Assembly (NCBI GenBank): GCA_025057015.1
Contig: JANWYG010000008.1
Location: forward strand, 88,722-152,721
Length of the DNA: 64,000 nucleotides
Source of the DNA: Blastocatellia bacterium
Lineage (GTDB): Bacteria > Acidobacteriota > Blastocatellia > Chloracidobacteriales > JADJPF01
Direction of reading: 5' to 3'
In this document: positions 4,545 through 64,000 of the stretch, one piece after another
Numbering within the stretch: position 1 is the first letter of the stretch
How the letters are laid out: every line of letters starts with the position of its first letter
Made by a program: the position numbers and the translations under genes
The notes under the pieces: generated by a model
Databases searched by the model: none
What the model saw: the letters and a program-made list of their open reading frames with translations, nothing else
Told to the model about the DNA's origin: nothing

Positions 4545-4569
4545 TATTCCTCCTCGATAGGCGAAATAG

Positions 4570-4575: not shown

Positions 4576-4622
4576 AGTCTAACATATAGAACTGGTCGAA
4601 ACTACTGAATTGTTGTATAAGA

Positions 4623-5894
4623 TTACCTTATTTCAGCTATGTCTTTTCTATAGTGCTTGCCTGGAAAGTCTATGGTACTTACTGCTTTATACGCCAGCTT
4701 TCTGGCTTCCTCGAGGGCTCTGTGCCTTGCTGTAACTGCAAGGACACGTCCTGCGGAAGTGACGTATCTGTTTTTTTCATCTAGCTTCGTGCCTGCATGA
4801 AAGATTCTAACTCCGTCTAGCTTTGTTGCTTCCTCTAGCCCTGAAATAATGTCCCCTGTGCGCGGCGTACCTGGATACCCTTCGGCGGCCATGACGACGC
4901 ACACAGTTGAGTCGCTGCTCCAGCAAGGCCTCACGGATTTAAGATCCTCATTCACTATAGCTTCTAGGATCTCCAGTAGGTCACTTTCTAGCCTCATCAG
5001 CACGGCTTGTGCTTCGGGGTCACCTAACCGGACGTTATACTCAAGCACGCGAGGACCTTCATCAGTGAGCATCAATCCTATGAAGAGCACTCCTCGGAAA
5101 GGTCTGCCTTCATCGGCCATGCCGGCAATTGTAGGCTCGGCTATTTTACTTATTATCTGCTCTAGGAGCTTGTCGGGTAGCATTCCTGCGGCAGAGTATG
5201 CTCCCATGCCGCCTGTATTTGGCCCTCTATTACCTTCGTAAGCTGCTTTATAGTCTTGAGCTAATGGCATAGGTAGGATGTCTTTGCCATCGCTGAAGAC
5301 TAGTAGTGATGCTTCTTGGCCTGAAAGATACTCTTCTATTACCAGCCTAGTACCTGCTGAGCCTAGACTTTTATCAATCATAAATCTTCGTATTGTAGCG
5401 AATGCTTCCTCGGCATCCTGAGCTATAACCACTCCTTTGCCAGCAGCAAGGCCATCAGCCTTTAGCACTACGGGGAAGCGGTATACTCCAGAGGAGATAA
5501 TGTCGAAGGCTGACTCGGGAGTCTCACAATAAGTGAAGTCCGCAGTAGGGATATGGTGTCTGGCCATGAATTCCTTTGCGAAGATCTTGCTTCCTTCTAG
5601 TTGTGCGGCGGCTTTTGTAGGACCTACTATACGGCGCTTACGGCGGCTGAAGGCATCTACTATCCCTGCTACGAGTGGGGCTTCAGGGCCTACTACCGTT
5701 AGGTCTATCTCTTCTTTGTCGGCAATTTCTGCTAGCTGGAGAGGATTTGAGGCGTCGACGTTAAGCAGAGTTGCTTGCTGAGCTATGCCGGCGTTTCCAG
5801 GGCTACAGTAGACTTTTGTTACGTTAGGGCTGGTTGCTAGCTTCCACACCAGGGCGTGTTCTCTTGCCCCTGAACCTATAACCAAGACTTTCAT
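4623..5894 (-). CDS. purD: phosphoribosylamine--glycine ligase
   Basis: 423 aa. MKVLVIGSGAREHALVWKL..., ATP-grasp core, full-length PurD architecture. Confidence 0.95.
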   Translation of the reverse strand: MKVLVIGSGAREHALVWKLATSPNVTKVYCSPGNAGIAQQATLLNVDASNPLQLAEIADKEEIDLTVVGPEAPLVAGIVDAFSRRKRRIVGPTKAAAQLEGSKIFAKEFMARHHIPTADFTYCETPESAFDIISSGVYRFPVVLKADGLAAGKGVVIAQDAEEAFATIRRFMIDKSLGSAGTRLVIEEYLSGQEASLLVFSDGKDILPMPLAQDYKAAYEGNRGPNTGGMGAYSAAGMLPDKLLEQIISKIAEPTIAGMADEGRPFRGVLFIGLMLTDEGPRVLEYNVRLGDPEAQAVLMRLESDLLEILEAIVNEDLKSVRPCWSSDSTVCVVMAAEGYPGTPRTGDIISGLEEATKLDGVRIFHAGTKLDEKNRYVTSAGRVLAVTARHRALEEARKLAYKAVSTIDFPGKHYRKDIAEIR

Positions 5895-5928: not shown

Positions 5929-6813
5929 TTAAAGCTTCATAGGTACAGGGTTTTGAGGATCGGTATAGTCATAGAAGCCACGCCCGGTCTTTCGCCCATG
6001 CATTCCGGCTAGTACCATTCTTTTTAGCAGAGGCGGTGGAGCGAAGCGTTGTTCGCGAAACTCTTCAAACATTATTTCTGCTATGTAGTAGGTAGTATCT
6101 AGTCCGACAAAGTCCAGTAGCGTAAATGGGCCCATAGGATGCCCACATCCGAGCATCATACCGTTGTCTATATCTACAATTGATCCTACTCCTTCTTCGA
6201 GCGCACGTATTGCGTCAAGCAGATATGGTACCAGTAGCCGGTTTACTATGAATCCTGTTCTATCGGAAGTTCGTATGACAGTCTTGCCTATCTTGCTGCC
6301 AAAAGCTGCTACTTCGTCAAAGACCCCTTCATCAGTAACTAATGTCCTTACTGCTTCCAGAAGTTTCATAACTGGTACTGGATTGAAGAAATGTAGCCCT
6401 ACGAAGCGCTTCCTGCGTTCGGTGCCTACGGCCATCATCAGTTCAGTGATTGATAGCGAAGAGGTATTTGAAGCAAATATTGTTTCCGGTTTGCAGTAGC
6501 GGTCTAGCTTAGTAAACACTTCCTTCTTGGCATTTTTGTTTTCTATGATTGCTTCGATTATCAGATCGCAGTCGGAGAGTTCTTCAAGAGAAACAGTTCC
6601 TCGCAGGCGTGCCATCGTGGCTGACTTTCCTTCAGCGGAAAGTTTGCCTTTTTCTACAGACTTAGTAAGCGATTTGTCGATCGTGTTGAGCCCTTTGTCA
6701 AGTAGCTCTTGAGACATTTCGCAAACCGTAGTTTCATAGCCGGCTGTAGCACAAACCTGAGCTATGCCTGATCCCATAAGTCCGCAACCTATTACCCCTA
6801 TCTTGCTTATCAT
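5929..6813 (-). CDS. hbd: 3-hydroxyacyl/3-hydroxybutyryl-CoA dehydrogenase
   Basis: KIGVIGCGLMGSGIAQV Rossmann motif plus a 3HCDH C-terminal domain. I prefer the ATG at 6813 (GGAG 8 nt upstream) over the track start 6849, which would overlap the thiolase gene. Confidence 0.85.
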   Translation of the reverse strand: MISKIGVIGCGLMGSGIAQVCATAGYETTVCEMSQELLDKGLNTIDKSLTKSVEKGKLSAEGKSATMARLRGTVSLEELSDCDLIIEAIIENKNAKKEVFTKLDRYCKPETIFASNTSSLSITELMMAVGTERRKRFVGLHFFNPVPVMKLLEAVRTLVTDEGVFDEVAAFGSKIGKTVIRTSDRTGFIVNRLLVPYLLDAIRALEEGVGSIVDIDNGMMLGCGHPMGPFTLLDFVGLDTTYYIAEIMFEEFREQRFAPPPLLKRMVLAGMHGRKTGRGFYDYTDPQNPVPMKL

Positions 6814-8100: not shown

Positions 8101-8115
8101 TGGCAAAAAACTTGC
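8101..8115 (+). promoter_or_regulatory. candidate sigma-54 (-24/-12) promoter
   Basis: TGGCAAAAAACTTGC matches TGGCAC-N5-TTGC with exact GG-N10-GC spacing. It lies 54 nt upstream of the ATG at 8169, which has an AGGAG RBS at 8157-8161. Confidence 0.55.
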
Positions 8116-8168
8116 GGCTGGATCACGGCGTTTTGTAAAATAGGTTTAGATTCATTAGGAGCTTCCAT

Positions 8169-8540
8169 ATGGCAATCTGTCCTCAGTGCGGAGCTGAATA
8201 TCGCAAAGAGATACTACGTTGTGAGGATTGTGACAGGGACCTTGTTGAAGAACTCACGCCGGAAAATGCTATCTATGATACAAGCGAAGCGCGGTTTGTA
8301 GCTCTGAAAACCTTTGCTACCAGTGCAGAAGCCGAGATGGTGCAGGAGATCTTGACAAAAAATCAGGTGCGCTCTTTGTTACAGGGTGAGGCTTCTACTG
8401 ATATTTTTCCAAGTACAGCCGTGTCGGTTGTACTTCTTGTAGACGAACGAGATCTGGCTAAAGCTTCAGAACTCGTCGAAGCTTACTTTGAAACTGAGTT
8501 GGAAGAACCGCTTGATGGTAAGGAAGACCAAGAGACATGA
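8169..8540 (+). CDS. zinc-ribbon protein with a DUF2007-like (putative signal-transducing) domain
   Basis: 123 aa. CPQCGAEY...CEDCDRDL zinc ribbon followed by a small alpha/beta domain and an acidic tail. 4-nt ATGA overlap with cutA. Confidence 0.6.
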   Translation: MAICPQCGAEYRKEILRCEDCDRDLVEELTPENAIYDTSEARFVALKTFATSAEAEMVQEILTKNQVRSLLQGEASTDIFPSTAVSVVLLVDERDLAKASELVEAYFETELEEPLDGKEDQET

Positions 8541-9760: not shown

Positions 9761-12025
9761 ATGTACGAATTTGGTGATTTTGCTGAGAGATTTAGTGAGA
9801 GCGGACAGAGAGTGATGAGGCGGGCAATAGAGGAGTCTCGTAAGCGTGATCATAACTTTATCTCACCCGAGCACATATTCGTAGCTATTTCGGAAGTCGA
9901 AAAGGCCTTCTTCAATGAGGTTATGCAGAGCCTCAATCTTGATCCGCAAGCTATATTGAAAGAGATAGAAATGAAGTTGTCGGTGCCTAAGCAGTACACT
10001 GGCAAACGTATAAAGCTTTCGGAAGCAACAAGAGAGCTGCTTACACAGGGACTCCGCAAGGCACGGCAGGCAGGGCGTCAAACTATAGACGCTACCGATT
10101 TGTTTCAATCTATCTTCGAGGATAAAAACAGCGAGCCTGTGATGGTTTTGCGCAAATTCGGTGCTGATCCAGATATGGTGCTGGCTAAGATAGCTACTCG
10201 GCTCAAATCTAGAGAGGAACGTGAAGATAGGCTACGTAAGAAGTATGAGCTGCCGCCCTATCTAAGACACTTTGGAGTAAGCCTGAATAAACAGGCACGA
10301 CAGGATAAGTTGCCACCTGTGATAGGTAGAGAGCGCGAAATACGTCAGATAATAGAGATTCTCTGTCACAAAGAGCGAGCGAATTCGCCTATGCTCGTCG
10401 GCGAAGCCGGAGTAGGTAAGACGGCCGTAGTAGAAGGGTTGGCACGAATGATAGAGCTTGAACCTGAGAAAGTGCCTGCAAGGCTTAGAAATGCTCACAT
10501 AGTTAATCTGCAGATCTCAGGCGTGGTCGCTGGAACGATGCTGCGCGGCATGTTCGAAGAACGTATCCAAGGGATTATCAATGAAGTCAAGGAGCGCGAA
10601 AACATCATCCTCTTCATAGATGAAGCTCATATGATTATAGGAGCTGGATCTGCTCTTGGGGCAAGTTCTGACGCAGCGAATATGTTTAAGTCAGCTCTAG
10701 CAAGAGGTGAGCTGCGAATAATCGGCGCGACTACGATGACCGAATATAAAGAATACATAGCAGAAGATGAAGCGCTTGCTCGTCGCTTCCGACTTGTGAA
10801 GATAGAAGAACCGAACATAGAGCAGACAAGAAAGATACTGCAGGGCTTAAGACCGCGGCTTGAGAGCAATTACTCGGTGACCATTACCAAAGAAGCTATG
10901 GAAACTGCCCTTGAGCTCGCACCCCGTTATATGAGAAGTTTGCACATGCCCGATAAAGTGATCGGCTGGTTAGATACCGCTTCAGTGAAGGTTGAGATAA
11001 ATAACCCTGAAAAGCCGCTCGTGCTGCCAGAGCACGTGATAGACGTCATCTCACAAGAATCGAGTATCCCGCGAGATATGATCTTTCGTGATGTAAACGA
11101 AAGGTTTAAGTCGATAGAGCAAGAACTGTCGGCTCGCGTCATAGGTCAACAGGAGGCTGTAAGTGCCGTAGCAAGACGTTTGAGGCTCAATAAAGGGCCA
11201 CTTAAAGAAAATTTCTACAAGCCTGACGGCGTGCTGCTTTTCCTAGGTCCTACTGGCGTTGGTAAAACAGAGCTCGCAAAAGCGGTAGCACATTTTATGT
11301 TCGGCGACGAACGTAAGATGGTCAGAATTGATATGTCTGAATATCAAGATGGCACTATAGCTGTTGAAAAACTGATAGGTATGCCGCGTGGTATAGTAGG
11401 CTCAGAGCGGGGTGGTATATTGACCGAGAAGCTGCGGGATAATCCGTATACAGTGTTGTTGCTGGATGAGATAGAAAAAGCATCACCCTACCTGCTAAGC
11501 CTATTTTTGCAAGCTTTCGATGAGGGATGGTTGACCGATGGGCGCGGTAAGAAGGTCTATCTCTCGGATGCGATAGTTATAATGACGTCCAACCTTGGCA
11601 GCGATAACTTTAAGAAGTATATGAAGCCTCTCGGCTTTGGAACCAAAACTACTATGGAAATCGAGCAGATAAAGCGTGAGGTGATTAAAGCTGCCGAAGA
11701 GCGTTTCTCACCTGAGTTTCGCAATAGGATAGACGAGATAGTGGTCTTTTCCCCTCTGACGCGTGACGAAGTAAAGCAGATAGCAGAGATGTACATAAAC
11801 GGAATTAATAGACAAGCCCAGAAGCATGCAAAGCAGATCAATGTCTCAGAAGACGCCCTGAATTTGCTCGTCGAGCAAGGCTTTAGCCCCGCTTATGGAG
11901 CTCGTTTCCTCAAGCGTACCATAGATGAGAAAGTGAAACTCCCAGTGACTATGATGTGGAAAGAGTCCGACGTCTTTTACGTTTTTGTCGAAAAGGGTGA
12001 AGTGAAGGTAGCCACCGGAAGCTAG
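9761..12025 (+). CDS. ClpA/ClpC-like two-ring AAA+ unfoldase (Clp protease ATP-binding subunit)
   Basis: 754 aa. Clp_N repeats. D1 has GEAGVGKTA and ILFIDEAH. D2 has GPTGVGKTELAK and LLLDEIEKA. KPLGFGTK sits at the position of the ClpA IGL ClpP-docking loop. No long ClpB-type M-domain. Confidence 0.85.
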   Translation: MYEFGDFAERFSESGQRVMRRAIEESRKRDHNFISPEHIFVAISEVEKAFFNEVMQSLNLDPQAILKEIEMKLSVPKQYTGKRIKLSEATRELLTQGLRKARQAGRQTIDATDLFQSIFEDKNSEPVMVLRKFGADPDMVLAKIATRLKSREEREDRLRKKYELPPYLRHFGVSLNKQARQDKLPPVIGREREIRQIIEILCHKERANSPMLVGEAGVGKTAVVEGLARMIELEPEKVPARLRNAHIVNLQISGVVAGTMLRGMFEERIQGIINEVKERENIILFIDEAHMIIGAGSALGASSDAANMFKSALARGELRIIGATTMTEYKEYIAEDEALARRFRLVKIEEPNIEQTRKILQGLRPRLESNYSVTITKEAMETALELAPRYMRSLHMPDKVIGWLDTASVKVEINNPEKPLVLPEHVIDVISQESSIPRDMIFRDVNERFKSIEQELSARVIGQQEAVSAVARRLRLNKGPLKENFYKPDGVLLFLGPTGVGKTELAKAVAHFMFGDERKMVRIDMSEYQDGTIAVEKLIGMPRGIVGSERGGILTEKLRDNPYTVLLLDEIEKASPYLLSLFLQAFDEGWLTDGRGKKVYLSDAIVIMTSNLGSDNFKKYMKPLGFGTKTTMEIEQIKREVIKAAEERFSPEFRNRIDEIVVFSPLTRDEVKQIAEMYINGINRQAQKHAKQINVSEDALNLLVEQGFSPAYGARFLKRTIDEKVKLPVTMMWKESDVFYVFVEKGEVKVATGS

Positions 12026-34101: not shown

Positions 34102-34115
34102 GGATGGGTCATTGA

Positions 34116-34470
34116 TGGAGGTGAAGGGAATCGAACCCTTGTCCGAAAGTCTTCAGCGTCGGAGTCTACATACATAGCCGCTTCCTTTGAAAGCAGCCTT
34201 GGGCGGAGTGGAAGCGGCAAGCACCGCACCGCAGCTCACCCTCGACGCTCTTCGCCGCTTTGCCTGAGGGTATGGCTTAACGGCTAGCCTGCTTTAGTGC
34301 CGCCTTTAACAGTTCCGCAGGCAGGAGCTGTTAAAGACGCTAGCTGCAACTACGCAGCCAGTGCCAACTGCTCAGTGTCTGCAGTTATTTTTTCCATGCA
34401 GTTTACGGGTTACATGGTTCCCGGTATGCATCCGTACGCCTCACTACTCCCGTCGAAACCTAGCACCCCC
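34116..34470 (-). ncRNA. ssrA: tmRNA (SsrA), one-piece
   Basis: 5' GGGGGUGCUAGGUUUCGACGGGAGU and 3' GGACAAGGGUUCGAUUCCCUUCACCUCCA. The 7-bp acceptor stem has a G3:U70 alanine identity pair. T-arm AAGGG-UUCGAUU-CCCUU. CCA is not encoded. Confidence 0.9.
34350..34382 (-). other. tmRNA tag reading frame, predicted tag (A)ADTEQLALAA
   Basis: GCA GAC ACU GAG CAG UUG GCA CUG GCU GCG UAG follows an AAAAAAUAACU leader. The C-terminal LAA is the canonical degron ending. Confidence 0.7.
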
Positions 34471-39555: not shown

Positions 39556-40695
39556 ATGAAAGTACTGGTGCTAGGTGCAGGTCGTATGGGGTACGGTGTA
39601 ACTTTTGACTTGCTTCGTAGTCCGGATATAGAGGTCACCTTGGCGGATGTAGATGCCAGAAGGCTCGATTTGATAAGGGATAAGCTTGATGCTAGTGGCA
39701 GACTGACTACCGTTTGCATGGATATTTCCAATAAGGCTGAAGTACTGCGCTTGATGCGGGAACGGACTGTGGCAGTAGGCTGTGTAAGCTACGAGTATAA
39801 CCTTATGTTGACAGAGGTTGCTATAGAAGCAGGGGTGAGTTTTTGCGATCTGGGAGGAAACAATACAGTAGTAGATGCTCAATTTTCTTTAGATGAGCAG
39901 GCACAAGCTGCTGGGGTAACTATCATACCTGATTGCGGTCTAGCACCTGGCATGGTCTGTGTGCTTGTAGCAGACGCTACAAAGGCATTTGATGAGCTTG
40001 ACAGTATCAAAATACGCGTCGGTGGTTTGCCTGTTAATCCCAAACCGCCGCTCGACTATCAGATAGTGTTTTCCGTAGAGGGATTGATAAACGAGTATGT
40101 AGAACCGGTCAGGGCAATACGTAACGGCCAACTAGTTGAACTTGAGCCGATGACTGAGCTAGAGGAGCTGGAGTTTGAGGCAATAGGAAGACTCGAAGCG
40201 TTTAATACATCGGGCGGGCTTTCTACTTTGGTGAAGACTTTTGGCAGCAAAGTGCGTGAGATGGATTACAAGACAATCCGTTACCCGGGTCACTGTCAGA
40301 AATTCAAGCTACTGATAGATCTAGGGCTTGCTTCTGCTCATGTGTTAGATCTAGGCTCAGTGAAAGTCGCACCTCGTAAGGTACTTGCTCGTTGTTTGCT
40401 TGACCGACTGCCTAAGGATGAGCCTGATATCGTGTTGATACGGTTGACTGTGATGGGTAACAAGGATGGACAGCGACGTTGCCTTACTTATGAGCTAGTA
40501 GATAGATATGATGAGCAGAGTGGACTCAGTGCTATGATGCGAACTACTGCGTTTCCTGCTTCGATAATAGCCCAGATGATGGCCAGGGGTAAGGTTTGTA
40601 AAGGAGTAGTGCCTCAGGAATTGGCCATCCCGTCGGGAGAATTTGTGGCTGAGCTTGAGAAGAGAGGGCTAGTGATTACTAAGTTATGGAGATAG
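39556..40695 (+). CDS. saccharopine dehydrogenase-family NAD(P)-binding protein
   Basis: MKVLVLGAGRMGYGVTFDLL Rossmann N-terminus plus a Sacchrp_dh C-terminal-like region. GGGAGGAG RBS. Confidence 0.7.
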   Translation: MKVLVLGAGRMGYGVTFDLLRSPDIEVTLADVDARRLDLIRDKLDASGRLTTVCMDISNKAEVLRLMRERTVAVGCVSYEYNLMLTEVAIEAGVSFCDLGGNNTVVDAQFSLDEQAQAAGVTIIPDCGLAPGMVCVLVADATKAFDELDSIKIRVGGLPVNPKPPLDYQIVFSVEGLINEYVEPVRAIRNGQLVELEPMTELEELEFEAIGRLEAFNTSGGLSTLVKTFGSKVREMDYKTIRYPGHCQKFKLLIDLGLASAHVLDLGSVKVAPRKVLARCLLDRLPKDEPDIVLIRLTVMGNKDGQRRCLTYELVDRYDEQSGLSAMMRTTAFPASIIAQMMARGKVCKGVVPQELAIPSGEFVAELEKRGLVITKLWR

Positions 40696-43559
40696 GTACT
40701 CTTGCAAACAAGGTCTCTTCGATCAGCGTTGTCGAAGCAGTAGCTCAGCTTCGCAAAAGGCTGACTGACGCGCTTCAACCTGACTTAGAGTATCAGCTTC
40801 GGAGCGCTCTTGTTGATTTGTTACAGGAGCAAGGACAGCTGGAAGAGGCACTGCAAGCCGTCCAGGTTTATGAAAATGAGGAGTACAGAAACCGTCTGTC
40901 TGAGGCGGTTAGGTCTCTTGCTTTGCTGGTGCTTGCGCGTTGCTATATCGCTACAGATCTGCCAAAAGCGATAGCTTTGCTTAATCAAGCAATCAGTGAG
41001 TGTAAGGAGACAGGGCAGCTTGCAGGTGTTGCGGAAGGGTACTATCTGCTAGGTGAATCATATTTGCGGATACAAGAAACTAGCGTTGCGCGTGACTATT
41101 TTCAGGAGGTACTAAAGCAGCGGCCGCGCGAAGCACGTCTCAAGGTGCTTACCTATCTACAGCTCGGACTTGTGGAGCATAGGGAAGGAGATAGCTTTAC
41201 CGCTAGAAAGTACTTTGAGGAAGCGATGCAAGCTGCTCAGGCCTGTGATGATACTGCTGTTGTCGGTAAGCTCTACTTAACTGTTGGCAAGATATGTTTC
41301 GAAAGGTGTGAGACAGAGGATGCGAAGCGGTATCTAAGGTTTTCTGTAGAGTACTTGCAGGACAGGAGCAGCAGATTACTTGCTTTGGCATATGTGTACT
41401 ATGCACAGGTACTCTGTCGTTTTGGGGAGTGGCAGGAAGCTTTTCAAAAACTTGACGAAGCACTACTTATTGCTAGACAGACTGTCAGCAGGTACGAGGA
41501 AGCGTTAGCGCTAAGTACGCTAGGTGTGGTTGAGTATAGAGTAGGCAAGTTACAAGATGCGAAAAGAGATTTACAAGCTGCTGCAACGCTCTTTGAACAG
41601 CTGGGAGTTAGGCTGGAGCTTGTGGACTGCTTCAGGTATCTAGCTTTGGTTTTTGGAACGCTGCGGCAAGAGGAGGAAGCTTTTGACTACGCAAAACGTG
41701 CTTTGCAGCTTACCTTTGTCGAAAGGACGCCTGCTCAAGCGGCTGGGTCATATCTGGTGCTTGCTGAGCTACATCTACGCCGTAGAGAGTACAAAGTAGC
41801 AGAAGACTTTCTCAATATGGTTCGTGTAATACTTGACGAGCAAGTAGATTTAGAGCTGTTGGGTATAGCTCTACGGTTACTTGGAAAGATAAAAGTTATA
41901 CAAGATCAGATTACGGCAGCTCGTTCCGCACTTTCAAAGAGCATATCTCATCTGCGTACGGCAAGAAGCGACTACCATCTTGCTATAGCTGAGCTGGAAA
42001 TGGGTAAGCTACTTCTTCGGCTGGATGAGAAAGCACAAGCAAAAGAAAGTTTACAACGTGCTGAAGTGCTTTTTGCGCGGTTACAACTGGAAACATTGCG
42101 CCGGCAGGCCGAGTCTTTGCTGAAGCTGCCACAGCTAAAGGTAATTGAAGGTGGATACAGTCGTGTCAGCTTTGACAGTGCTGTTGAACGGATACTAGAT
42201 GTTCCGCCACAGACAGAACTGTTGCTGCGGGAACTGCTGACTATGGCTTATGAGTTAGTTCAAGCAAGATTGGGGATAGTATTTGAGCAAAGTCCTGGAG
42301 CAGAGCTTGTACCTGTATTGACGCAGGGGGAGCAGGTACGAGACATGGCGCAACTGTGCTTGCGTTTGAAGCTACAGATAGACGGTGGCTTGCTGACAGC
42401 TCCTAACACGGTGATTATGAAGATAAGGACGCCCGGGATGCGGGATAAGGTGCTTTATTTAGTAGCAAATGAGCGTCCTGAAGAGGGGCAGCTTCGACAG
42501 TTAAAGACGCTCGTCAGGCTAGTTGAGCATAGTCTAGAGCTGTTTAGTTTACGCGAGCGCACTAAGCAATCGAAAGCATTTGACTTTACTCAGACATTAT
42601 CGTCTATTCCTGGATTTATAGTAGCCAGTGCAGCAATGAGAACCGTGCTGGAGCAGGTGTGTAAGATTCGTTCTAGCAAGCTCACAGTATTGATTACTGG
42701 CGAATCGGGGACGGGTAAGGAACTGGTTGCTAAGGCTATACATCTGGAAAGTGAGCGTCGTGAGAAGCCTTTTGTGCCGTTTAACTGTGCTGCTGTAGCT
42801 AAAGAGATAGTAGAAAGCCGACTTTTTGGTCATCGCAAGGGAGCTTTTACGGGAGCTGCTTATGACCAACTTGGGGTCATTCGAGCGGCGGAAGGTGGGA
42901 CGATATTCCTCGATGAAATAGGCGAGTTACCGCTTGAAATACAGCCTAAGCTGCTACGTTTCTTACAAGAAGGTGAGATTCATCCTTTGGGTGAAGATCG
43001 GCCTGTTCGAATCGATGTGCGGATCGTTGCGGCTACGAATCGTGATCTGGGGACGTTGGTAGAGCAAGGTAAGTTTCGAGAGGACCTCTTTCACCGGCTC
43101 AACGTGATACGTATACATATTCCTCCGCTTAGGGAGCGACGCGAAGAAATACTGCCGCTTGCTGAGAGTTTTCTTATATCTTTCTGTGAGCGTTTAGGTA
43201 AGCGAGTTGTGCTTTCTGACGCTGCCATAGAGAAGCTCATCAAGTATGATTGGCCGGGCAATGTTCGGCAGCTCAAGAACGAGCTTGAGCGCATAGTTGC
43301 CTATGCAGAAAATGATCACGTAGTGACGCCTGACGACTTATCTTCGGAGATAATTTCTGGGACTACTGGAAAGCAGCTGTCGGGTAAGTGCCTTTTGGTT
43401 CCGACAGATCTGGAGCTTGCAGAAGCAGTGAGTTTTTTGGAAAGGCAGATGCTGATTGAAGCGCTTAAGAGGAATCAGGGTAATATCTCTCGGGCTGCGA
43501 AACAGCTAGGTTTGACTCGCAAGGGGCTATACATGAAGCGAGCTCGGCTTGGGGTATGA
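40686..43559 (+). CDS. sigma-54-dependent transcriptional activator with a long TPR N-terminus and a GAF-like domain
   Basis: 957 aa. ~480 aa of TPR-like repeats and a GAF-like segment. AAA+ module has ITGESGTGKELVAKAIH, GAFTGA, FLDEIGE and PGNVRQL. C-terminal Fis HTH ISRAAKQLGLTRKGLY. No receiver domain. 10-nt overlap with the upstream gene. Confidence 0.9.
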   Translation: MEIGTLANKVSSISVVEAVAQLRKRLTDALQPDLEYQLRSALVDLLQEQGQLEEALQAVQVYENEEYRNRLSEAVRSLALLVLARCYIATDLPKAIALLNQAISECKETGQLAGVAEGYYLLGESYLRIQETSVARDYFQEVLKQRPREARLKVLTYLQLGLVEHREGDSFTARKYFEEAMQAAQACDDTAVVGKLYLTVGKICFERCETEDAKRYLRFSVEYLQDRSSRLLALAYVYYAQVLCRFGEWQEAFQKLDEALLIARQTVSRYEEALALSTLGVVEYRVGKLQDAKRDLQAAATLFEQLGVRLELVDCFRYLALVFGTLRQEEEAFDYAKRALQLTFVERTPAQAAGSYLVLAELHLRRREYKVAEDFLNMVRVILDEQVDLELLGIALRLLGKIKVIQDQITAARSALSKSISHLRTARSDYHLAIAELEMGKLLLRLDEKAQAKESLQRAEVLFARLQLETLRRQAESLLKLPQLKVIEGGYSRVSFDSAVERILDVPPQTELLLRELLTMAYELVQARLGIVFEQSPGAELVPVLTQGEQVRDMAQLCLRLKLQIDGGLLTAPNTVIMKIRTPGMRDKVLYLVANERPEEGQLRQLKTLVRLVEHSLELFSLRERTKQSKAFDFTQTLSSIPGFIVASAAMRTVLEQVCKIRSSKLTVLITGESGTGKELVAKAIHLESERREKPFVPFNCAAVAKEIVESRLFGHRKGAFTGAAYDQLGVIRAAEGGTIFLDEIGELPLEIQPKLLRFLQEGEIHPLGEDRPVRIDVRIVAATNRDLGTLVEQGKFREDLFHRLNVIRIHIPPLRERREEILPLAESFLISFCERLGKRVVLSDAAIEKLIKYDWPGNVRQLKNELERIVAYAENDHVVTPDDLSSEIISGTTGKQLSGKCLLVPTDLELAEAVSFLERQMLIEALKRNQGNISRAAKQLGLTRKGLYMKRARLGV

Positions 43560-43638: not shown

Positions 43639-43711
43639 GGGCCGTTAGCTCAGTTGGTAGAGCATTTGGCTTTTAACCAAAGGGTCGCTGGTTCGAGCCC
43701 AGCACGGCTCA
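43639..43711 (+). tRNA. tRNA-Lys (anticodon UUU)
   Basis: Cloverleaf folded by hand: acceptor GGGCCGT/ACGGCUC, D arm GCUC-AGUUGGU-AGAGC, anticodon stem UUUGG/CCAAA with loop CUUUUAA, T arm GCUGG-UUCGAGC-CCAGC. Confidence 0.9.
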
Positions 43712-43721
43712 TAGACTCTCT

Positions 43722-43796
43722 GTCTCGTTCGTCTAGCCCGGCCTAGGACACCGCCCTTTCACGGCGGCAACACGGGTTCAAATCCCGTACGAGACG
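43722..43796 (+). tRNA. tRNA-Glu (anticodon UUC)
   Basis: Acceptor GUCUCGU/ACGAGAC, anticodon stem CCGCC/GGCGG with loop CUUUCAC, T arm ACGGG-UUCAAAU-CCCGU. Confidence 0.9.
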
Positions 43797-43804
43797 CTTT
43801 AAAT

Positions 43805-57954: not shown

Positions 57955-58929
57955 TTAACCCTTTCTTAGTCTTGTAAGTATTTGGGTATGGTTAAGTCTG
58001 AGGTATTCAGAGTTTCTCAGTAACTCACACTCCTCTTTTAGAAGACGTATAAGATATCTCAACCGTCCGTTTTCAGTCCACTTGTGCACGTATGTGAGGT
58101 GGTAATTTGGAGTTATATGGAGCTGCTTATCTGGGGAAACATCTAGAGTGAGGTCTACTATTACGCCTATATCTTTGCCATCTCCGCGTTGGTTGGAGAT
58201 AAAGTTACCCATAGAGAAGATCGCGTAGCGGCTGGCGTCAGGCGAAAGGATTGGTTGTTGGACTATGTGAGGGTGACTGCCAAGAACTATGTCTATACCA
58301 AGGGATTGAAATTTCTCTACTGCGGCTTTCTGTGTTTCGTCAGGGCAAGTTGAATATTCTGTACCTATGTGAAGCATGCTGAGGATGACATCTGCACCGG
58401 CAGCTCTACAGGCAGCTACATCTAGGGCTACTTTTTCATAATCTATGAGGTTAACCATGTATTCTTCAGCCACGGGGATATCGTTTGTGCCGTAGGTATA
58501 GGCGGTAATAGCGATACGGATTTTGTTACGAGTCACGATGAGGGGTGTGTTGCGTTCTTTCTGTGATCTTGCTGTGCCGGTATGGAGAAGACCTGCTTCG
58601 TCGAGCCGGTCGAGGGTAGAGAAGATACCTGCTTCGCCGTAGTCTGCAGCATGGTTGTTAGCTGTAGTAAGCACATCGAATCCTACAAGTTTTAGTTCTT
58701 TGGCAAGTATTTCTGGAGCGTTAAAGCGCGGGTAGCCGGTATAGCCTTTTTCCTTGCCTGCGAAGGTAGTTTCCAAATTACCGATTACGAGATCAGCTTG
58801 TGAGAACAGCTCTCTTACTTCTTCAAAACACGAGCTGAACGAATAGCTATGAGATACTTCGTCATAGGCAGCATTGATTTGGTCTTGGTGAATGATAATG
58901 TCACCTACGGCCATAACTCTTGCTTTCAT
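57955..58929 (-). CDS. CapA-family metallophosphoesterase-like protein (poly-gamma-glutamate capsule synthesis family)
   Basis: 324 aa. VMAVGDIIIHQ, GNLETTF, TANNHAADYG, LHIGTEY and LGSHPHIVQ. Confidence 0.8.
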   Translation of the reverse strand: MKARVMAVGDIIIHQDQINAAYDEVSHSYSFSSCFEEVRELFSQADLVIGNLETTFAGKEKGYTGYPRFNAPEILAKELKLVGFDVLTTANNHAADYGEAGIFSTLDRLDEAGLLHTGTARSQKERNTPLIVTRNKIRIAITAYTYGTNDIPVAEEYMVNLIDYEKVALDVAACRAAGADVILSMLHIGTEYSTCPDETQKAAVEKFQSLGIDIVLGSHPHIVQQPILSPDASRYAIFSMGNFISNQRGDGKDIGVIVDLTLDVSPDKQLHITPNYHLTYVHKWTENGRLRYLIRLLKEECELLRNSEYLRLNHTQILTRLRKG

Positions 58930-58992
58930 GGGCTAGTATTTTAGCAGACTTTGTGTTGATATGTTCCTAAAGCGGTTGTGTAGTGTTTGATG

Positions 58993-59022
58993 TTGACGAG
59001 AATGAAGGTTGTTTTCTATAAT
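58993..59022 (+). promoter_or_regulatory. candidate sigma-70 promoter of the rplU operon
   Basis: TTGACG (58993-58998), 18 nt spacer, TATAAT (59017-59022). About 50 nt upstream of the rplU start. Confidence 0.55.
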
Positions 59023-59071
59023 TTGAAACTTTCTTACTTAATCTCGTGGAGTAATCTTAGAGCCGGAGGTA

Positions 59072-59377
59072 ATGGTTTTGTACGCAGTAATTAGGACAGG
59101 TGGGAAACAATATCGTGTGACTGAAGGACAGACTTTGCGCGTACCGAGCATAGATGCTGAAGTTGGTGCTACGATTGAGCTAGAGACGTTGGCTAAGGGT
59201 GAGGCTGAGCAGTTACAAGTTGGGGCGCCGGTGCTTGCTGATAAAGTCAAGGCTAAAGTGGTGGAGCACGGGCGGGGAGAAAAGATAATAGTCTTCAAAT
59301 TCAAGCGTCGCAAGCAGTACAAACGCAAGCGAGGACATCGTCAAGGCTTTACTGCTATAAAGATCGAATCGATATGA
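59072..59377 (+). CDS. rplU: 50S ribosomal protein L21
   Basis: YAVIRTGGKQYRV..., 101 aa. GGAGG RBS. An alternative TTG start at 59078 gives MYAVIR. Confidence 0.95.
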   Translation: MVLYAVIRTGGKQYRVTEGQTLRVPSIDAEVGATIELETLAKGEAEQLQVGAPVLADKVKAKVVEHGRGEKIIVFKFKRRKQYKRKRGHRQGFTAIKIESI

Positions 59378-59389
59378 TGAGAGGGGGAT

Positions 59390-60662
<1,273 letters not shown>

Positions 60663-60663
<1 letters not shown>

Positions 60664-61034
60664 TGACTGAGAATACGACGCTGATAGAGGGTATAAGTGA
60701 TGCGAGGCTTGAAACTGTAGTAGCATGTGCTGGAGATAAGAAGGCTGTTGACATAGTGATTCTGGACCTCAGAGAGGTAGCTCAATTTACTGATTATTTT
60801 GTCATTTGCAATGGTCGTAGCAACAGACAAGTGCAGGCAATATGCGAGCAGATAGAGGAAAAACTTTCGCAGCGGGGTGTTAGGCCTTTACATATAGAGG
60901 GTTTTGAAGCTGCTCGATGGATACTTATGGACTATGGTGACTTTATAGTTCATATCTTTGACGAGGAAGCAAGGAAGTTTTACGAGTTAGAGAGACTTTG
61001 GCGGGATGCGCCGCGGATAGAGATAAAGGGTTGA
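60663..61034 (+). CDS. rsfS: ribosome silencing factor RsfS (iojap)
   Basis: 123 aa. DKKAVDIVILDLREVAQFTDYFVICNGRSNRQVQAI...W.LMDYGDFIVHIF. Confidence 0.9.
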
Positions 61035-61966
61035 TGGATGCTGTTGAGGTAGTGGCTGTCTGTCCTAAGATGCGCTATCTCCTTGGGCTGCTCGACAGGG
61101 TGGCAAGAACCGATGCTACGCTGGTTATATATGGCGAGTCAGGTACGGGTAAGGATCTTTTTGCTCGACTTGCGCATGAAAAGAGTCGTAGAAGTGGGGC
61201 CGCTCTAGTAAAGATCGATTTTTCGACGTTTCCAAGTGAGCTGCTGGAAAGTGAACTTTTTGGCTATGAGAAAGGAGCTTTTTCCGGTGCGTTTAGTAGC
61301 AAGCCTGGCAGATTAGAGGCTGCAACTGGTGGTACGCTAGTACTTGATGAGTTGATTCATCTAAGCCCTCAAAGCCAGGCTAAACTGCTAAGGATAATAG
61401 AAGACCGAGAGTTTATGCGCCTCGGTGCCGTGACAAAGACTCCACTTGATGTGCGCTTGATAGTGCTATCAAGTATCAAACTGATTGAGGCCGTAAATGC
61501 CGGACTGCTCAGAGTAGATCTTTTTCACCGTCTGAACATAGTGTCTTTAGAGTTGCCCCCCCTTAGAGAACGTCGACCCGACTTAGAGGTACTTTTAGAC
61601 CTCTGCCTGAAGAGAGCAGCTAGGTTGCATCGTAAAAGCGTCAAGACGATAAGCGACGAAGCCAAAAGGCTGTTGTTGGAATATGAGTATCCCGGCAACG
61701 TACGGGAGCTTCAAAATATTCTTGAACGTGCTGTGATCTTAGCTGCAAGCGAGACTATACAAGTAGAACATCTGCCTGACTACATGGTTTCTATACGGCG
61801 ATTTGTTGATGGACGCAAGATGACCCTTGCTGAAGTGGAGGCGCTGTACATAAGAGAGGTGCTGCTTGAGACTCGAGGGCATAAGACAAAAGCAGCAAAG
61901 ATACTTGGTATCAGTAGGAAAAACCTGTACGAGAAGATGAAGAAGTACTCGATAAAAGTTAACTAG
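61034..61966 (+). CDS. sensor-less sigma-54-dependent activator (AAA+ sigma-54 interaction domain plus Fis HTH; PspF-like architecture)
   Basis: 310 aa. Walker A YGESGTGKD, GAFSGA (GAFTGA variant), Walker B LVLDEL, FHRLNIVSLELPPLRERRPD, PGNVRELQN, C-terminal HTH TKAAKILGISRKNLYEK. No receiver, PAS or GAF domain. The start overlaps the rsfS stop by 1 nt. Confidence 0.85.
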   Translation: MDAVEVVAVCPKMRYLLGLLDRVARTDATLVIYGESGTGKDLFARLAHEKSRRSGAALVKIDFSTFPSELLESELFGYEKGAFSGAFSSKPGRLEAATGGTLVLDELIHLSPQSQAKLLRIIEDREFMRLGAVTKTPLDVRLIVLSSIKLIEAVNAGLLRVDLFHRLNIVSLELPPLRERRPDLEVLLDLCLKRAARLHRKSVKTISDEAKRLLLEYEYPGNVRELQNILERAVILAASETIQVEHLPDYMVSIRRFVDGRKMTLAEVEALYIREVLLETRGHKTKAAKILGISRKNLYEKMKKYSIKVN

Positions 61967-61977
61967 CCAGAAAAGGA

Positions 61978-62412
61978 ATGAAATTCTACTTTGTTTGGAT
62001 AGGTAAAACAAGAAATCCTCATTTGGAAGCGCTTGTAGAAGAGTACTTGCGCCGCCTTGGTCGTTATGCAAGGTATGAGCTGCGAGAGCTAAAAGATGCT
62101 AGAAACGAAGATCAGACTATACTTTCGGCGCTCGAAAGAGATATCTATACCATAGTTTTGGATGAGCTAGGCGAGCAGTGGACTTCGCGCGAGCTGGCTT
62201 CGGCACTAGAGAAGTGGCAGTTACAGTCGATCAAAGGGTTGGCTTTCGTCGTAGGTGGTGCTGAAGGACTTGGTAAGCAAGTCAAAGCTAGAGCAAACAG
62301 GCTATGGTCATTGTCAAAACTGACGTTTACTCATGAAATGGTACGGGTGTTGCTTTTAGAGCAACTCTATAGAGCGTGTACGATCATTCACGGCCATCCA
62401 TATCAAAAGTGA
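61978..62412 (+). CDS. rlmH: 23S rRNA (pseudouridine1915-N3)-methyltransferase RlmH
   Basis: 144 aa SPOUT/YbeA pattern: ...LDE.G...S.E.A........G....F..GGA.G......A....SLS..TF.H...R..L.EQ.YRA..I..G.PY. Confidence 0.9.
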   Translation: MKFYFVWIGKTRNPHLEALVEEYLRRLGRYARYELRELKDARNEDQTILSALERDIYTIVLDELGEQWTSRELASALEKWQLQSIKGLAFVVGGAEGLGKQVKARANRLWSLSKLTFTHEMVRVLLLEQLYRACTIIHGHPYQK

Positions 62413-62433
62413 TGGTCAAGGGGGAAATCAAGG

Positions 62434-62802
62434 ATGGAAAAAGCGAAGCTAGAATACTACAAAGCTAAGTTACTAGAAAGGCGTACTGTCCTGACTGGTA
62501 TGGTGGAAAGGACAGAAAACTATGGCCGTGAAGCAGATACAGAGCTTACTCAAGATCCTGCGGATAAAGCTTCCAACGCGTATACCAAGGAACTGCTTTT
62601 CAGTCAGAGCACCAACGATCGGTTTATTCTGAACCTCATAGCTGAGGCGCTAGAACGCATCGAAGATGGTACTTACGGTTTATGCGTGTATTGTAACAGG
62701 GAGATTCAGCCTAAGAGGCTAGAAGCTGTACCTTGGGCGCGACATTGCATTACTTGTCAGGATCTACAAGAGCGCGGATTACTTGACGAAGAGGAACAGT
62801 AG
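62434..62802 (+). CDS. DksA/TraR-family C4 zinc-finger protein
   Basis: 122 aa. Coiled-coil N-terminus, then [26 protein letters not shown]. Confidence 0.8.
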
Positions 62803-63518
62803 TGTGGTTGCTTTTAGATAAATGTGCGAAGGGCTTGCTAAGCGTAGTCTTGCCGGTTAGCTGCGCTTGCTGTGGCTGTGCTGTAGGTGGACTGGCGGAA
62901 GGAAGTGTGTGCGAGTCCTGTTGGCAAAAGGTGCGTCGGCCTGACTTCAGGAGAGCCTGCTGCAGACGATGCACTAAGCCTTATCCTGTTGAAATCGCTG
63001 AATGCGATTTATGTAAGGATTTGGCTTTCCGGAAGGCAGTCTATTGTGGTGTGTATGAAGGTGCCATACGTAACGTAGTTTTGGAACTCAAAACTTTGCC
63101 TCATTTACCGAAAAAGGCTAAACAGCTGCTTTTCGATACTTATTTAGAAGCTTCGCTTTCTTGTGACGTCATAGTGCCTGTACCGCTTCATCCTGATAGA
63201 CTTAAGGAACGTGGCTATAATCAAGCAGAAGTTATAGCAAAAGCCCTGTCGCAGATGACGGGAATAGAAGTAGACTCGATCTCTTTGATAAGAGTTAGAA
63301 AAACTGTGAAAAACCGCGCTTGGGCTACTCGAACTGACCGTATTAGGGAATTGAAAGGGGCTTTTAGAATCTGCAAACCTCGCCGGATTGCCAACCGCAG
63401 CGTGCTTCTTATCGACGATCTGTATACTACAGGGAGCACCGCTACAGCTTGTGCACAAGCACTGCTTGATAGCGGTGCAAAGGATGTTTCCGTAATTACA
63501 TTGGCTAGGCGACTCTAG
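62802..63518 (+). CDS. ComF-family protein (phosphoribosyltransferase domain with an N-terminal zinc-ribbon)
   Basis: 238 aa, GTG start overlapping the previous stop by 1 nt. Cys-rich N-terminus. PRTase motif VLLIDDLYTTGSTA. Confidence 0.8.
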   Translation: MWLLLDKCAKGLLSVVLPVSCACCGCAVGGLAEGSVCESCWQKVRRPDFRRACCRRCTKPYPVEIAECDLCKDLAFRKAVYCGVYEGAIRNVVLELKTLPHLPKKAKQLLFDTYLEASLSCDVIVPVPLHPDRLKERGYNQAEVIAKALSQMTGIEVDSISLIRVRKTVKNRAWATRTDRIRELKGAFRICKPRRIANRSVLLIDDLYTTGSTATACAQALLDSGAKDVSVITLARRL

Positions 63519-64000
63519 CGTTCTTGAATATCTTCTTCGTCTTCCTCCTCTTCGTCTTCTTCTTCGCTGCGTAGGTCGAGCTCGTCAAGTTTTCTAGCTG
63601 TTAGGGATAGCTTTGGGCGATCGCCAAAATAAGCGGCAATCTCGTTGTATATTTGTCCTGCAAACACTGACGTCTGTGAACCACGTTCTGAAGATCCTGT
63701 GGTTATGACTACAGCTACTAGGTCGGGTTTTTCAGGGCTAAAGAAAGAGGCAAAAAGCCCGAGTTTTGATTCCTGACCAGTACAACTTCCTGTCTTACCT
63801 GCGACTCCTAGATGTGCTGCGCCACATCGCCGGGCAGAACCAAATGTGACTGCTCCTAGCATCCCTTCTATTAGCTTTTGCCGTGCTTTTTCGTCCATAC
63901 GCACCGTGCGCAAAAGCCGAGGCTGGAATTCTGCTTCCTCGCGCTCGCTTCTTACTATTTGTGGTTGGTAGATCTTGCCACCGTTGGCAATTGCAGCAGT
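63515..64000 (-). CDS. penicillin-binding protein (PBP2/FtsI-type transpeptidase), C-terminal fragment; 5' end outside window
   Basis: Frame is open to the window edge (TAAIANGGKIYQPQIV...). KTG box in GVAGKTGS. Ends with an acidic tail SEEEDEEEEDEEDIQER. Confidence 0.7.
   Translation of the reverse strand, partial: TAAIANGGKIYQPQIVRSEREEAEFQPRLLRTVRMDEKARQKLIEGMLGAVTFGSARRCGAAHLGVAGKTGSCTGQESKLGLFASFFSPEKPDLVAVVITTGSSERGSQTSVFAGQIYNEIAAYFGDRPKLSLTARKLDELDLRSEEEDEEEEDEEDIQER

Follow-up and report, generated by a model that had tools for sequence, protein, structure and literature searches.

The window (the whole stretch of DNA that was analysed, 64,000 nucleotides) carries a string of eight plus-strand genes in which the gene of a sensor-less sigma-54 enhancer-binding protein (bEBP) lies between rsfS and rlmH, behind a sigma-70 promoter and genes for two ribosomal proteins. 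The string consists of the following features:

58993-59022, plus strand: operon promoter, sigma-70, TTGACG-18-TATAAT (score 11/12)
59072-59377, plus strand: rplU, ribosomal protein L21 (Pfam Ribosomal_L21p, E = 6.3e-36)
59390-59653, plus strand: rpmA, ribosomal protein L27 (Pfam Ribosomal_L27, E = 9.7e-37)
59656-60663, plus strand: obg, GTPase Obg/CgtA (Pfam GTP1_OBG, E = 3.6e-64, plus MMR_HSR1)
60663-61034, plus strand: rsfS, ribosome silencing factor (Pfam RsfS, E = 3.5e-37; TIGR00090, 128.7 bits vs a cut-off of 56.9)
61034-61966, plus strand: bEBP gene, sensor-less sigma-54 enhancer-binding protein of 310 aa (Pfam domains spanning residues 10-305)
61978-62412, plus strand: rlmH, 23S rRNA m3-pseudouridine1915 methyltransferase (Pfam SPOUT_MTase, E = 1.3e-45)
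62434-62802, plus strand: dksA-type RNA polymerase-binding protein (Pfam zf-dskA_traR and DksA_N)
62802-63518, plus strand: comF-family phosphoribosyltransferase (NCBIfam ComF/GntX partial matches; Pfam DZR_2 and Pribosyltran)

A preliminary description of this DNA had reported eight genes separated by 12, 2, -1, -1, 11, 21 and -1 nt, a single promoter ahead of rplU and an overlap between the bEBP ATG and the rsfS stop. The coordinates agree with these gaps, Pfam and NCBIfam back each gene identity, the promoter was recovered at its place, and a direct reading of the junction showed ATGA, in which the stop of rsfS overlaps the start of the bEBP gene. The product of the dksA-type gene carries a DPADKA tip and a zinc finger formed by CVYC and CITC, and comF is the final gene of the string, being followed by a convergent ORF (63515-63913, minus strand). 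An internal promoter or terminator, which according to that description would uncouple the bEBP gene from its neighbours, was not encountered by sequence scanning: no terminator-like sites were found in 58800-63700 (the mean for shuffled sequence being 3.8) and no sigma-70-like site was found before the bEBP gene, the sole other plus-strand site lying inside comF (63193-63221). An Rfam search of the operon region found no RNA element. In all the related loci that include the region upstream of rplU (13/13), a promoter of the TTGACN-17/18-TATAAT type, scoring 10-12 of 12, was present 30-58 nt before this gene. Judged from these sequence features, the bEBP gene would be co-transcribed with the other genes of the operon.

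The bEBP matched the Pfam domains Sigma54_activat (residues 10-172, E = 1.5e-51), AAA_lid_14 (residues 178-253) and HTH_8 (residues 264-305, E = 2.6e-14), in agreement with the earlier view of a protein made only of a sigma-54 AAA+ module and a Fis-type HTH. These domains fill residues 10-305 and therefore leave no space for a sensor domain; no N-terminal receiver domain was found, since the AAA+ match opens at residue 10 and rsfS runs up to the start codon. All the motifs quoted previously (GESGTGKD, GAFSGA, LVLDEL, LIVLSS and PGNVRELQN) were located in the protein, whose functional elements are distributed as follows:

61133-61156, plus strand: Walker A GESGTGKD, aa 34-41 (sequence read)
61217-61219, plus strand: Asp62, the glutamate-switch position equivalent to PspF Asn64, within the signature K-I-D-C/F (family alignments)
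61274-61291, plus strand: L1 loop GAFSGA, aa 81-86, sigma-54 contact motif (family consensus GAFTGA)
61337-61354, plus strand: Walker B LVLDEL, aa 102-107, with D105 and E106 (sequence read and PspF alignment)
61457-61474, plus strand: sensor-1 strand LIVLSS, aa 142-147, with S146-S147 where most bEBPs have Thr-Asn (alignments)
61511-61531, plus strand: arginine fingers R160 and R166 (RVDLFHR), family-invariant and aligned with PspF R162 and R168
61691-61717, plus strand: sensor-2 region PGNVRELQN, aa 220-228, R224 aligned with PspF R227
61823-61948, plus strand: Fis-type HTH DNA-binding domain, aa 264-305 (Pfam HTH_8)

Six Walker A residues (G34, S36, G37, G39, K40 and D41) and four sensor-2 residues (P220, G221, N222 and R224) were invariant in an alignment of 31 family members, all of which also carried GAF[TS]GA (31/31). 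Of the 131 highly conserved columns, 10 differ from the family consensus in the window protein, always by a conservative change. NCBI has an identical protein, from an Acidobacteriota MAG, under the annotation sigma-54 dependent transcriptional regulator; the HTH segment LGISRKNLYEK is nearly invariant among the Blastocatellia-type members. As read from these alignments, the catalytic and sigma-54-contact residues of the bEBP are intact. The concern previously raised about GAFSGA and the Ser-Ser pair was not sustained: GAFSGA is reported to be a natural variant compatible with activity, borne by proteins with assigned sigma-54 regulons in Desulfovibrio and Clostridiales (PMC4641369, PMC6615313), and was found three times within the family alignments, while the sensor-1 pair varies among members (SS, SR, TN or AN) and is Thr-His in ZraR. 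On this comparison both are tolerated variation. A degenerate or repurposed AAA+ protein that has lost sigma-54 activation, and is either a plain DNA-binding repressor or inactive through its variant motifs, could be argued from the coincidence in the window protein of GAFSGA, Ser-Ser, the switch Asp and a Phe at the Cys63 position (K-I-D-C/F signature), as well as from a distant member (P0190) in which Walker B reads Asp-Asn in place of Asp-Glu. We consider this very improbable in view of the intact Walker A, Walker B (DE), arginine fingers and sensor 2, the universal GAF[TS]GA and the documented regulons of GAFSGA proteins; besides, the columns of the family alignment are on average about 60% identical from end to end, which speaks for purifying selection on the entire protein.

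The family to which the protein belongs comprises bEBPs of about 305-325 aa in which the AAA+ domain begins within some 10 residues of the N-terminus (the homologues listed are mostly 305-350 aa long). An Asp occupies the glutamate switch in 31/31 aligned members and in all 12 related loci compared, the equivalence of Asp62 and PspF N64 being taken from the alignment with PspF, whereas 66 of 81 other bEBPs have Asn there and five have Asp. This family-wide change probably alters the coupling of the ATP state to the sigma-54-binding loop. In a neighbour-joining tree all the 86 linked proteins fell inside one clade of 87, set off by a short internal branch with no bootstrap support. When species genomes were scanned with the family alignment, two of the 80 loci among the matches listed belonged to the family, and the others, unrelated bEBPs, were used as controls; the 78 nearest other bEBPs among these listed matches had, with the exception of one protein, 88 aa or more ahead of the AAA+ match (mostly about 140), and neither rsfS nor rlmH was found near any of them. 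The members bearing a taxon name came from Blastocatellia/Pyrinomonadaceae and from Candidatus Acidiferrum (Terriglobia), and the family is abundant, single clusters at 90% identity containing hundreds of soil sequences. It is rather likely that this is a distinct family of single origin, with Acidobacteriota as the source of every member that carries a taxon name.

The preliminary description had proposed looking for the rsfS-bEBP-rlmH arrangement in related genomes, and had considered that it might be unique to one of them. This is not the case. The bEBP gene directly follows rsfS in 15/15 contigs of relatives that were read, and rlmH comes next in 14/15; the proteins of these contigs are 43-66% identical, and the rsfS-linked order is kept although the outer flanks differ. 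Among 120 metagenome contigs selected by protein motif alone, the gene next upstream coded for RsfS in 85 of the 100 evaluable and the gene next downstream for RlmH in 60 of 74; both neighbours were present in 43 of 55. The order spans contigs down to 43% identity, and at least two classes of soil Acidobacteriota share the rsfS-linked placement in the loci read. With 3 nt separating rsfS from rlmH in E. coli, the bEBP gene is seen to sit within an otherwise widespread pair. Such deep conservation makes functional coupling more plausible than could be appreciated from one sequence.

The same observations bear on whether the bEBP is a passenger, inserted once and kept by inertia, with a regulon unrelated to the ribosome and an activity controlled in some unrelated way. 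The order rplU-obg-nadD-rsfS-rlmH is very stable across bacteria, and therefore any insert there may persist; no ribosome-related target was found either. Against this, the arrangement holds across the whole identity range and both classes in spite of the reshuffled flanks, the bEBP gene remains in the string in loci with other insertions (AbiEii in L089, heptamer repeats in L004), and its junctions are tight or overlapping in most related loci, with a start/stop overlap with rsfS in several. We regard the passenger explanation as unlikely. Further downstream the two branches differ, dksA being found after rlmH in every Blastocatellia-type locus that reaches that far and being absent from that position in the Acidiferrum-type loci.

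Sigma-54 sites were searched for in the window and in the related loci. No rpoN gene or RpoN box was found in the 64-kb window, which contains a second, canonical bEBP (40686-43559), sensor-bearing and with GAFTGA; the latter points to a working sigma-54 system and makes an rpoN elsewhere in the genome likely. The best site was located within the operon itself:

62339-62354, plus strand: candidate sigma-54-like -24/-12 motif TGGTACGGGTGTTGCT in the rlmH 3' end, its GC 81 nt before the dksA ATG

This was the only match scoring at least 7 of 8 on both strands of the window (128 kb of strand searched), and a perfect TGGCACG-N4-TTGCT with different spacer bases occurs at the same site in the two closest relatives (L001 and L091). 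Intragenic sigma-54 binding sites have been reported to be widespread in E. coli (PMC4591121). On these grounds the bEBP could be a local regulator, driving a second transcript for DksA and ComF from a promoter inside rlmH. The candidate, striking at first, was rejected, given that the motif overlies the conserved RlmH peptide H-E-[LM]-A-R-V-[LMV]-L, encoded by xTG GCx CGx xxx xTG CTx, a codon string that provides most of the consensus bases, and that both the GG and the GC are kept in only 17 of 77 rlmH genes. Five of the seven best sigma-54 matches in 534 kb of related loci fell on this same codon string; the sister lineages L003 and L092 have TTA instead of TTG at the -12 position, and by codon-identity analysis the window, L001 and L091 represent only about two independent lineages. 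Moreover, the Acidiferrum-type loci have no dksA gene to be driven, and no enhancer-like inverted repeats or palindromes were conserved upstream of the motif in the relatives. According to these comparisons TGGTACGGGTGTTGCT is probably for the most part a coding by-product of the RlmH peptide, and local control of dksA and comF is improbable.

Another predicted site, TGGCAAAAAACTTGCG at 8101, is intergenic and lies 53 nt before a DUF2007 gene; no conserved k-mers were common to the regions upstream of it and of TGGTACGGGTGTTGCT. No sigma-54 site was conserved in position across the conserved block of 15 loci, and no target promoter or enhancer of the bEBP was found in the loci searched.

The explanation we favour, and hold to be somewhat more probable than all others together, is that of an active bEBP that varies in dose with the ribosomal operon and is possibly gated in trans as well. 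The gene would have occupied its place between rsfS and rlmH over a very long period, within an rplU-rpmA-obg-(nadD)-rsfS-X-rlmH operon, and synthesis of its product would parallel that of L21, L27, Obg and RsfS, so that its cellular dose would report the transcription strength of the ribosome-biogenesis operon. Free of any cis-acting inhibitor, the bEBP would form an active hexamer by default, constitutive activity being an assumption that may hold. Its Fis-type HTH, which is very conserved, would bind a putative enhancer, and ATP hydrolysis would serve to open sigma-54 promoters elsewhere in the genome, with no conserved target adjoining; a protein partner or a small molecule might add a further gate in trans.

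PspF and HrpR/S, the two best-known domain-less bEBPs, are both restrained by trans-acting proteins, a point against constitutive activity. The anti-activators of bEBPs are usually encoded alongside them, as in NifL-NifA, PspA-PspF and HrpV-HrpS (see PMC3105312, PMC12998190). A product or signal of the operon itself could control the bEBP, either RsfS, titrated by free 50S subunits, or (p)ppGpp acting on the AAA+ core. The constancy of rsfS as a neighbour, greater than that of any other gene in both sets of contigs, is consistent with this proposal, as are the start/stop overlap in several loci, the presence in the operon of Obg and, in one branch, of DksA, both tied to the stringent response, and the switch residue altered throughout the family, given that the PspF glutamate-switch mutant N64S escapes trans inhibition (PMC4132715). 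However, no RsfS-bEBP fusion protein was found among about 360 homologues listed, and adjacency may merely mark the insertion point in a pre-existing rsfS-rlmH pair, and gating by ribosome status is rated as rather unlikely. If true, it would make the sigma-54 regulon responsive to the assembly or hibernation of ribosomes and not only to gene dose.

To our knowledge, bEBPs are the sole means of switching on sigma-54 promoters, and by the textbook rule the signal of each is defined by a sensor, either a part of the protein or a partner bound to it. The one constant feature of this sensor-less family is its position, between rsfS and the gene of a 23S rRNA methyltransferase, behind the promoter of L21, L27 and Obg. 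The rsfS-bEBP-rlmH placement suggests a link, so far undescribed, between sigma-54 gene control and ribosome production: in a full-text search no paper was found that ties a sigma-54 activator to rsfS or rlmH, nor any on bEBPs in Acidobacteria. Should the position prove functional, sigma-54 transcription would receive an input from growth rate, ribosome assembly or the stringent response by a directly testable route, applicable to Acidobacteriota, which are among the dominant and least studied phyla of soils. A more far-reaching version, which we offer as a speculation of rather low probability, is that much of this phylum wires part of the sigma-54 regulon to ribosome production and hibernation through an activator co-translated with RsfS and gated in trans by RsfS/free 50S or (p)ppGpp on an altered-switch AAA+ core; this would amount to a new input logic for bEBPs, in which translation status is the signal and no sensor domain is needed. 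The family also offers a natural Asn-to-Asp variant of the glutamate switch for work on the mechanism of AAA+ activators.

The protein had been called PspF-like, a term that stands for architecture and not for mechanism. As in PspF, an N-terminal regulatory domain is lacking and a sigma-54 AAA+ module is followed by an HTH at the C-terminus; the two proteins can be aligned at Walker A, Walker B, the arginine fingers and sensor 2. In contrast, identity with PspF is 34%, its match in a search of solved structures is far weaker than that of ZraR (E = 4e-42 vs 9e-72), Asp replaces the switch Asn64, and the gene lies inside a ribosomal operon and not beside a psp operon. The scores for the PspF equivalog TIGR02974 (212.2 bits vs a cut-off of 443.55) and for a second PspF model (172.5 vs 529) are well below threshold. 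Control of the PspF type, in which a PspA/IM30 homologue holds the bEBP inactive until membrane stress releases it, as in the E. coli Psp system, was suggested by this shared architecture and by a PspA/IM30 protein encoded within the window (3819-4544, minus strand; Pfam E = 1.1e-27). The identity of the latter is sound, but its gene is 57 kb from the bEBP gene, has no -24/-12 element upstream, as had been noted before, and has no counterpart near any of the related loci read. PspA docks on Y51, L52 and W56 of PspF, the YLW patch (PMC3791423); in the bEBP E, K and S occupy these positions, which are unconserved across the family alignment. Control by PspA was discarded on this comparison, and we attach hardly any probability to it.

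By AAA+ and HTH sequence the closest known proteins are ZraR, NtrC and AtoC (ZraR 1ojl; Aquifex NtrC4 and NtrC1), and partial NCBIfam matches of the bEBP include AtoC, NtrC, ZraR and RtcR. In the former group a receiver of about 120-140 aa and a linker control assembly, whereas the family described here begins at the AAA+ domain. HrpR and HrpS of Pseudomonas syringae are likewise domain-less bEBPs (PMC3105312). They differ in being an obligate paralogue pair, controlled by HrpV and encoded in a type III secretion cluster, while the bEBP is the product of a single gene in a housekeeping context, with no adjacent paralogue or HrpV-like neighbour. Another sigma-54 activator linked to the condition of the translation machinery is RtcR, which switches on the RNA-repair operon rtcBA (PMC9650030) and is also among the partial NCBIfam matches. 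RtcR, however, senses through an N-terminal CARF domain and adjoins its target operon, and the bEBP has neither a CARF domain nor an adjacent target. In Proteobacteria, rpoN is followed by hpf, the gene of the ribosome hibernation-promoting factor, an association between sigma-54 and ribosome silencing; no hpf was found in the 64-kb window. Both arrangements associate the sigma-54 system with ribosome silencing or hibernation factors, but there it is the sigma factor gene that accompanies hpf, and here it is the activator gene that accompanies rsfS, rlmH and obg.

The preliminary description placed the 310-aa activator, a sigma-54 enhancer-binding protein (bEBP), in a string of eight plus-strand genes, and both their order and spacing were borne out by the ORF coordinates, with identities assigned by Pfam and NCBIfam:

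59072-59377, plus strand, rplU
59390-59653, plus strand, rpmA
59656-60663, plus strand, obg
60663-61034, plus strand, rsfS, its stop overlapping the activator start (ATGA)
61034-61966, plus strand, the activator (bEBP)
61978-62412, plus strand, rlmH
62434-62802, plus strand, dksA, its product having a DxxDxA tip (DPADKA) and a C4 zinc finger
62802-63518, plus strand, comF

The ORFs flanking this string lie on the opposite strand. The single sigma-70 promoter proposed for the operon (TTGACG-18-TATAAT) was located at 58993-59022, and a strong sigma-70 promoter ahead of rplU was conserved in all the loci compared (n = 13/13). No terminator-like site was detected in 58800-63700, and the only other plus-strand promoter-like site lay within comF. 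Most of the rplU promoters compared also carried an (A/G)CTTT(T)C string 5-7 nt past the -10 hexamer, close to where transcription should begin (window 59023-59045 and its counterpart in the related loci L001, L003, L004, L008, L060, L088, L089 and L091). This string could represent a leader element or an initial transcribed sequence that has been conserved; Rfam gave no match at this region. Elsewhere in the window, a tmRNA gene was detected at 34113-34470 on the minus strand (Rfam, 170.9 bits), with the tag peptide ADTEQLALAA.

The activator was identical to an NCBI protein from an Acidobacteriota MAG, labelled sigma-54 dependent regulator, and had over 100 homologues sharing 51-66% identity, each of about 305-350 aa, the named ones belonging to Blastocatellia or Pyrinomonadaceae. 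The contigs of ten homologues were read, plus two more loci among the species-genome scan matches listed; the branch that includes the window is Blastocatellia-type. The order rplU-rpmA-obg-(nadD)-rsfS-bEBP-rlmH-dksA-comF was found in all twelve, with variable genes beyond the block, so that the synteny comparison proposed earlier showed the rsfS-bEBP-rlmH arrangement to recur in relatives rather than being unique to this genome. Between obg and rsfS, nadD was absent from the window and from L001 and L091, its closest relatives, and present in every other locus read (L003, L004, L006 and others), indicating a subclade-specific loss or relocation. Two loci carried additional sequence around the activator gene. 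In L089 an AbiEii-family toxin gene (4315-4944) lies between rsfS and the activator gene, the order and the activator-rlmH overlap being retained. In L004 tandem heptamers occupy the gaps on both sides (4860-5000 and 5940-6070), with (GGGATGA)n and an inverted copy, (TCATCCC)n, either side of a short spacer 5' of the gene and (ATCACGA)n 3' of it; the pattern suggests insertion of a small repeat element that left the gene order intact.

More distant members came from searching the representatives of 50%-identity clusters. Three short bEBPs (43-45% identity), with close relatives carrying the names Candidatus Acidiferrum or Candidatus Acidoferrales (class Terriglobia), were all encoded directly 3' of rsfS, followed by rlmH in two and by a TPR gene in one. 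In E. coli K-12 the order is nadD-cobC-rsfS-rlmH-mrdA with a gap of 3 nt between rsfS and rlmH, so the activator gene sits within an otherwise contiguous gene pair. Operon membership is conserved, with tight or overlapping junctions, and this surprising arrangement has clearly been selected.

A test independent of gene context was performed by scanning metagenome contigs for DNA encoding K-I-D-[CF]-x6-L-x-E-x-E-L-F-G-[YH]-E, which yielded 120 contigs. RsfS was encoded directly upstream in 85 of the 100 contigs with a judgeable upstream region, RlmH directly downstream in 60 of 74 evaluable contigs, and both together in 43 of 55; at least one link was present in 104/120. Among the 16 contigs with neither link, nine encoded an in-frame N-terminal extension of about 200-536 aa, identifying those proteins as multi-domain bEBPs. 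DksA followed rlmH in 17/60, in the Blastocatellia-type branch only. As a control, 78 other bEBPs (identity of 47% or less) among the species-genome scan matches listed were examined: all but one had 88 aa or more, in most cases around 140, ahead of the AAA+ module, and neither rsfS nor rlmH was near any of them. When 171 AAA+/HTH cores were clustered by neighbour joining, all the linked proteins (n = 86) fell in a single clade of 87, whose separating branch is short and carries no bootstrap value; the remaining member had no evaluable upstream sequence. Outside the family, an Acidobacteriota bEBP in locus L084 (5001-5909, 42% identity) has only 13 aa before the match and also seems to be without an N-terminal domain, its 443-aa ORF implying a C-terminal extension.

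Pfam domains fill the activator (Sigma54_activat, residues 10-172; AAA_lid_14, 178-253; HTH_8, 264-305) and rsfS ends at its start codon, leaving no room for a sensor domain, in agreement with the preliminary description, whose quoted motifs (GESGTGKD, GAFSGA, LVLDEL, LIVLSS and PGNVRELQN) were all present. Walker A residues G34, S36, G37, G39, K40 and D41, Walker B D105, arginine fingers R160 and R166, and sensor 2 R224 are invariant in the family, and E106 nearly so. The suspicion cast on GAFSGA and on the Ser-Ser of sensor 1 was not sustained: the sigma-54 contact loop reads GAFTGA in the family consensus, the GAFSGA variant recurs in the related proteins P0040 and P0190 and is compatible with activation according to two regulon studies (PMC4641369, PMC6615313), and sensor 1 varies in the family (SS, SR, TN or AN), being TH in ZraR, which is itself a genuine activator. 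Of 131 highly conserved columns, 10 differ from the consensus in the window protein, each by a conservative substitution. Judged from its sequence, the activator is an intact sigma-54 activator machine without a cis sensor.

At the position of PspF Asn64, Asp was found in 31/31 aligned family members and in all the related loci, versus 5/81 other bEBPs. In PspF, Asn64 pairs with the Walker B glutamate to form the glutamate switch, through which the sigma-54-binding loop responds to nucleotide state (PMC4132715); the Asp is a candidate adaptation to having no regulatory domain. P0190, a distant rsfS-linked member (L094, 5001-5975) with a TPR gene rather than rlmH downstream, has Walker B Asp-Asn for Asp-Glu and an atypical sensor-1 strand, and may be an ATPase-dead derivative.

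Production of the activator would scale with how strongly the L21/L27/Obg/RsfS operon is transcribed; the protein would form an active hexamer by default and would switch on distal sigma-54 promoters via a conserved enhancer. With such proportional expression and default activity, part of the sigma-54 regulon would track investment in ribosome biogenesis, a dose-coupling reading that we consider moderately probable. Additional gating in trans is possible, as rsfS is the most constant neighbour of the activator gene and the operon carries Obg and, in one branch only, DksA. Known anti-activators are usually encoded next to their bEBP. A passage in PMC3152329, with references cited there, has ppGpp and DksA promoting sigma-54-dependent transcription in Pseudomonas putida.

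As a search for target promoters, a -24/-12 scan of the whole window, scored out of 8, gave one match of at least 7/8, TGGTACGGGTGTTGCT at 62339-62354, within the 3' end of rlmH and with its GC 81 nt upstream of the dksA ATG. In the two nearest relatives the corresponding position carries a perfect TGGCACG-N4-TTGCT whose spacer bases differ. These matches would fit a local sigma-54 promoter driving dksA-comF, perhaps one recruited within this subclade alone, but such a promoter is quite improbable: the motif falls on a conserved RlmH peptide, H-E-[LM]-A-R-V-[LMV]-L, whose codons (xTG GCx CGx xxx xTG CTx) give most of the consensus, and the same codon string accounts for five of the seven best matches in 534 kb of related loci. 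Moreover, both GG and GC are retained in just 17 of 77 distinct rlmH genes, sister lineages have TTA at the critical Leu codon, the three positive loci represent about two independent lineages, and no conserved enhancer-like repeat lies upstream. No other positionally conserved -24/-12 site was found in the operon block across the related loci. Within the window, one intergenic candidate alone had a gene downstream, namely TGGCAAAAAACTTGCG at 8101-8116 on the plus strand, the site named in the preliminary description, which precedes:

8169-8540, a DUF2007 gene
next, a DUF4388/TPR gene
9761-12025, a ClpA-like ATPase gene

This site is not assignable to the rsfS-linked activator, because another sigma-54 activator, a 957-aa protein with a long N-terminal TPR region, a canonical GAFTGA and a Fis-type HTH, is encoded at 40686-43559 on the plus strand, directly followed by tRNA-Lys and tRNA-Glu (43639-43797).

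The label PspF-like held for architecture and failed for descent, since the best solved relatives were ZraR (E 9e-72), Aquifex NtrC4 and NtrC1, with PspF far behind (4e-42), and the PspF equivalog models were missed by a wide margin. PspA docks on PspF residues Y51, L52 and W56 (PMC3791423), which align with E, K and S in the activator and are variable across the family. The reported PspA/IM30 gene is real and unlinked to the activator, the scan likewise found no -24/-12 element upstream of it, and the related loci contained no counterpart. Control by PspA was rejected on these grounds as very unlikely.

A full-text literature search returned no account of this family and its placement, an absence that is no proof for the literature at large. 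New here are a large and, from its sequences, apparently monophyletic family of sensor-less bEBPs, acidobacterial in every named member, its fixed position between rsfS and rlmH in a ribosomal operon, and its family-wide Asp at the glutamate switch. The bEBP as a kind of component is known, and so are domain-less ones: PspF, which has the same architecture as the activator and differs by descent, and HrpR/S, which is domain-less as well.
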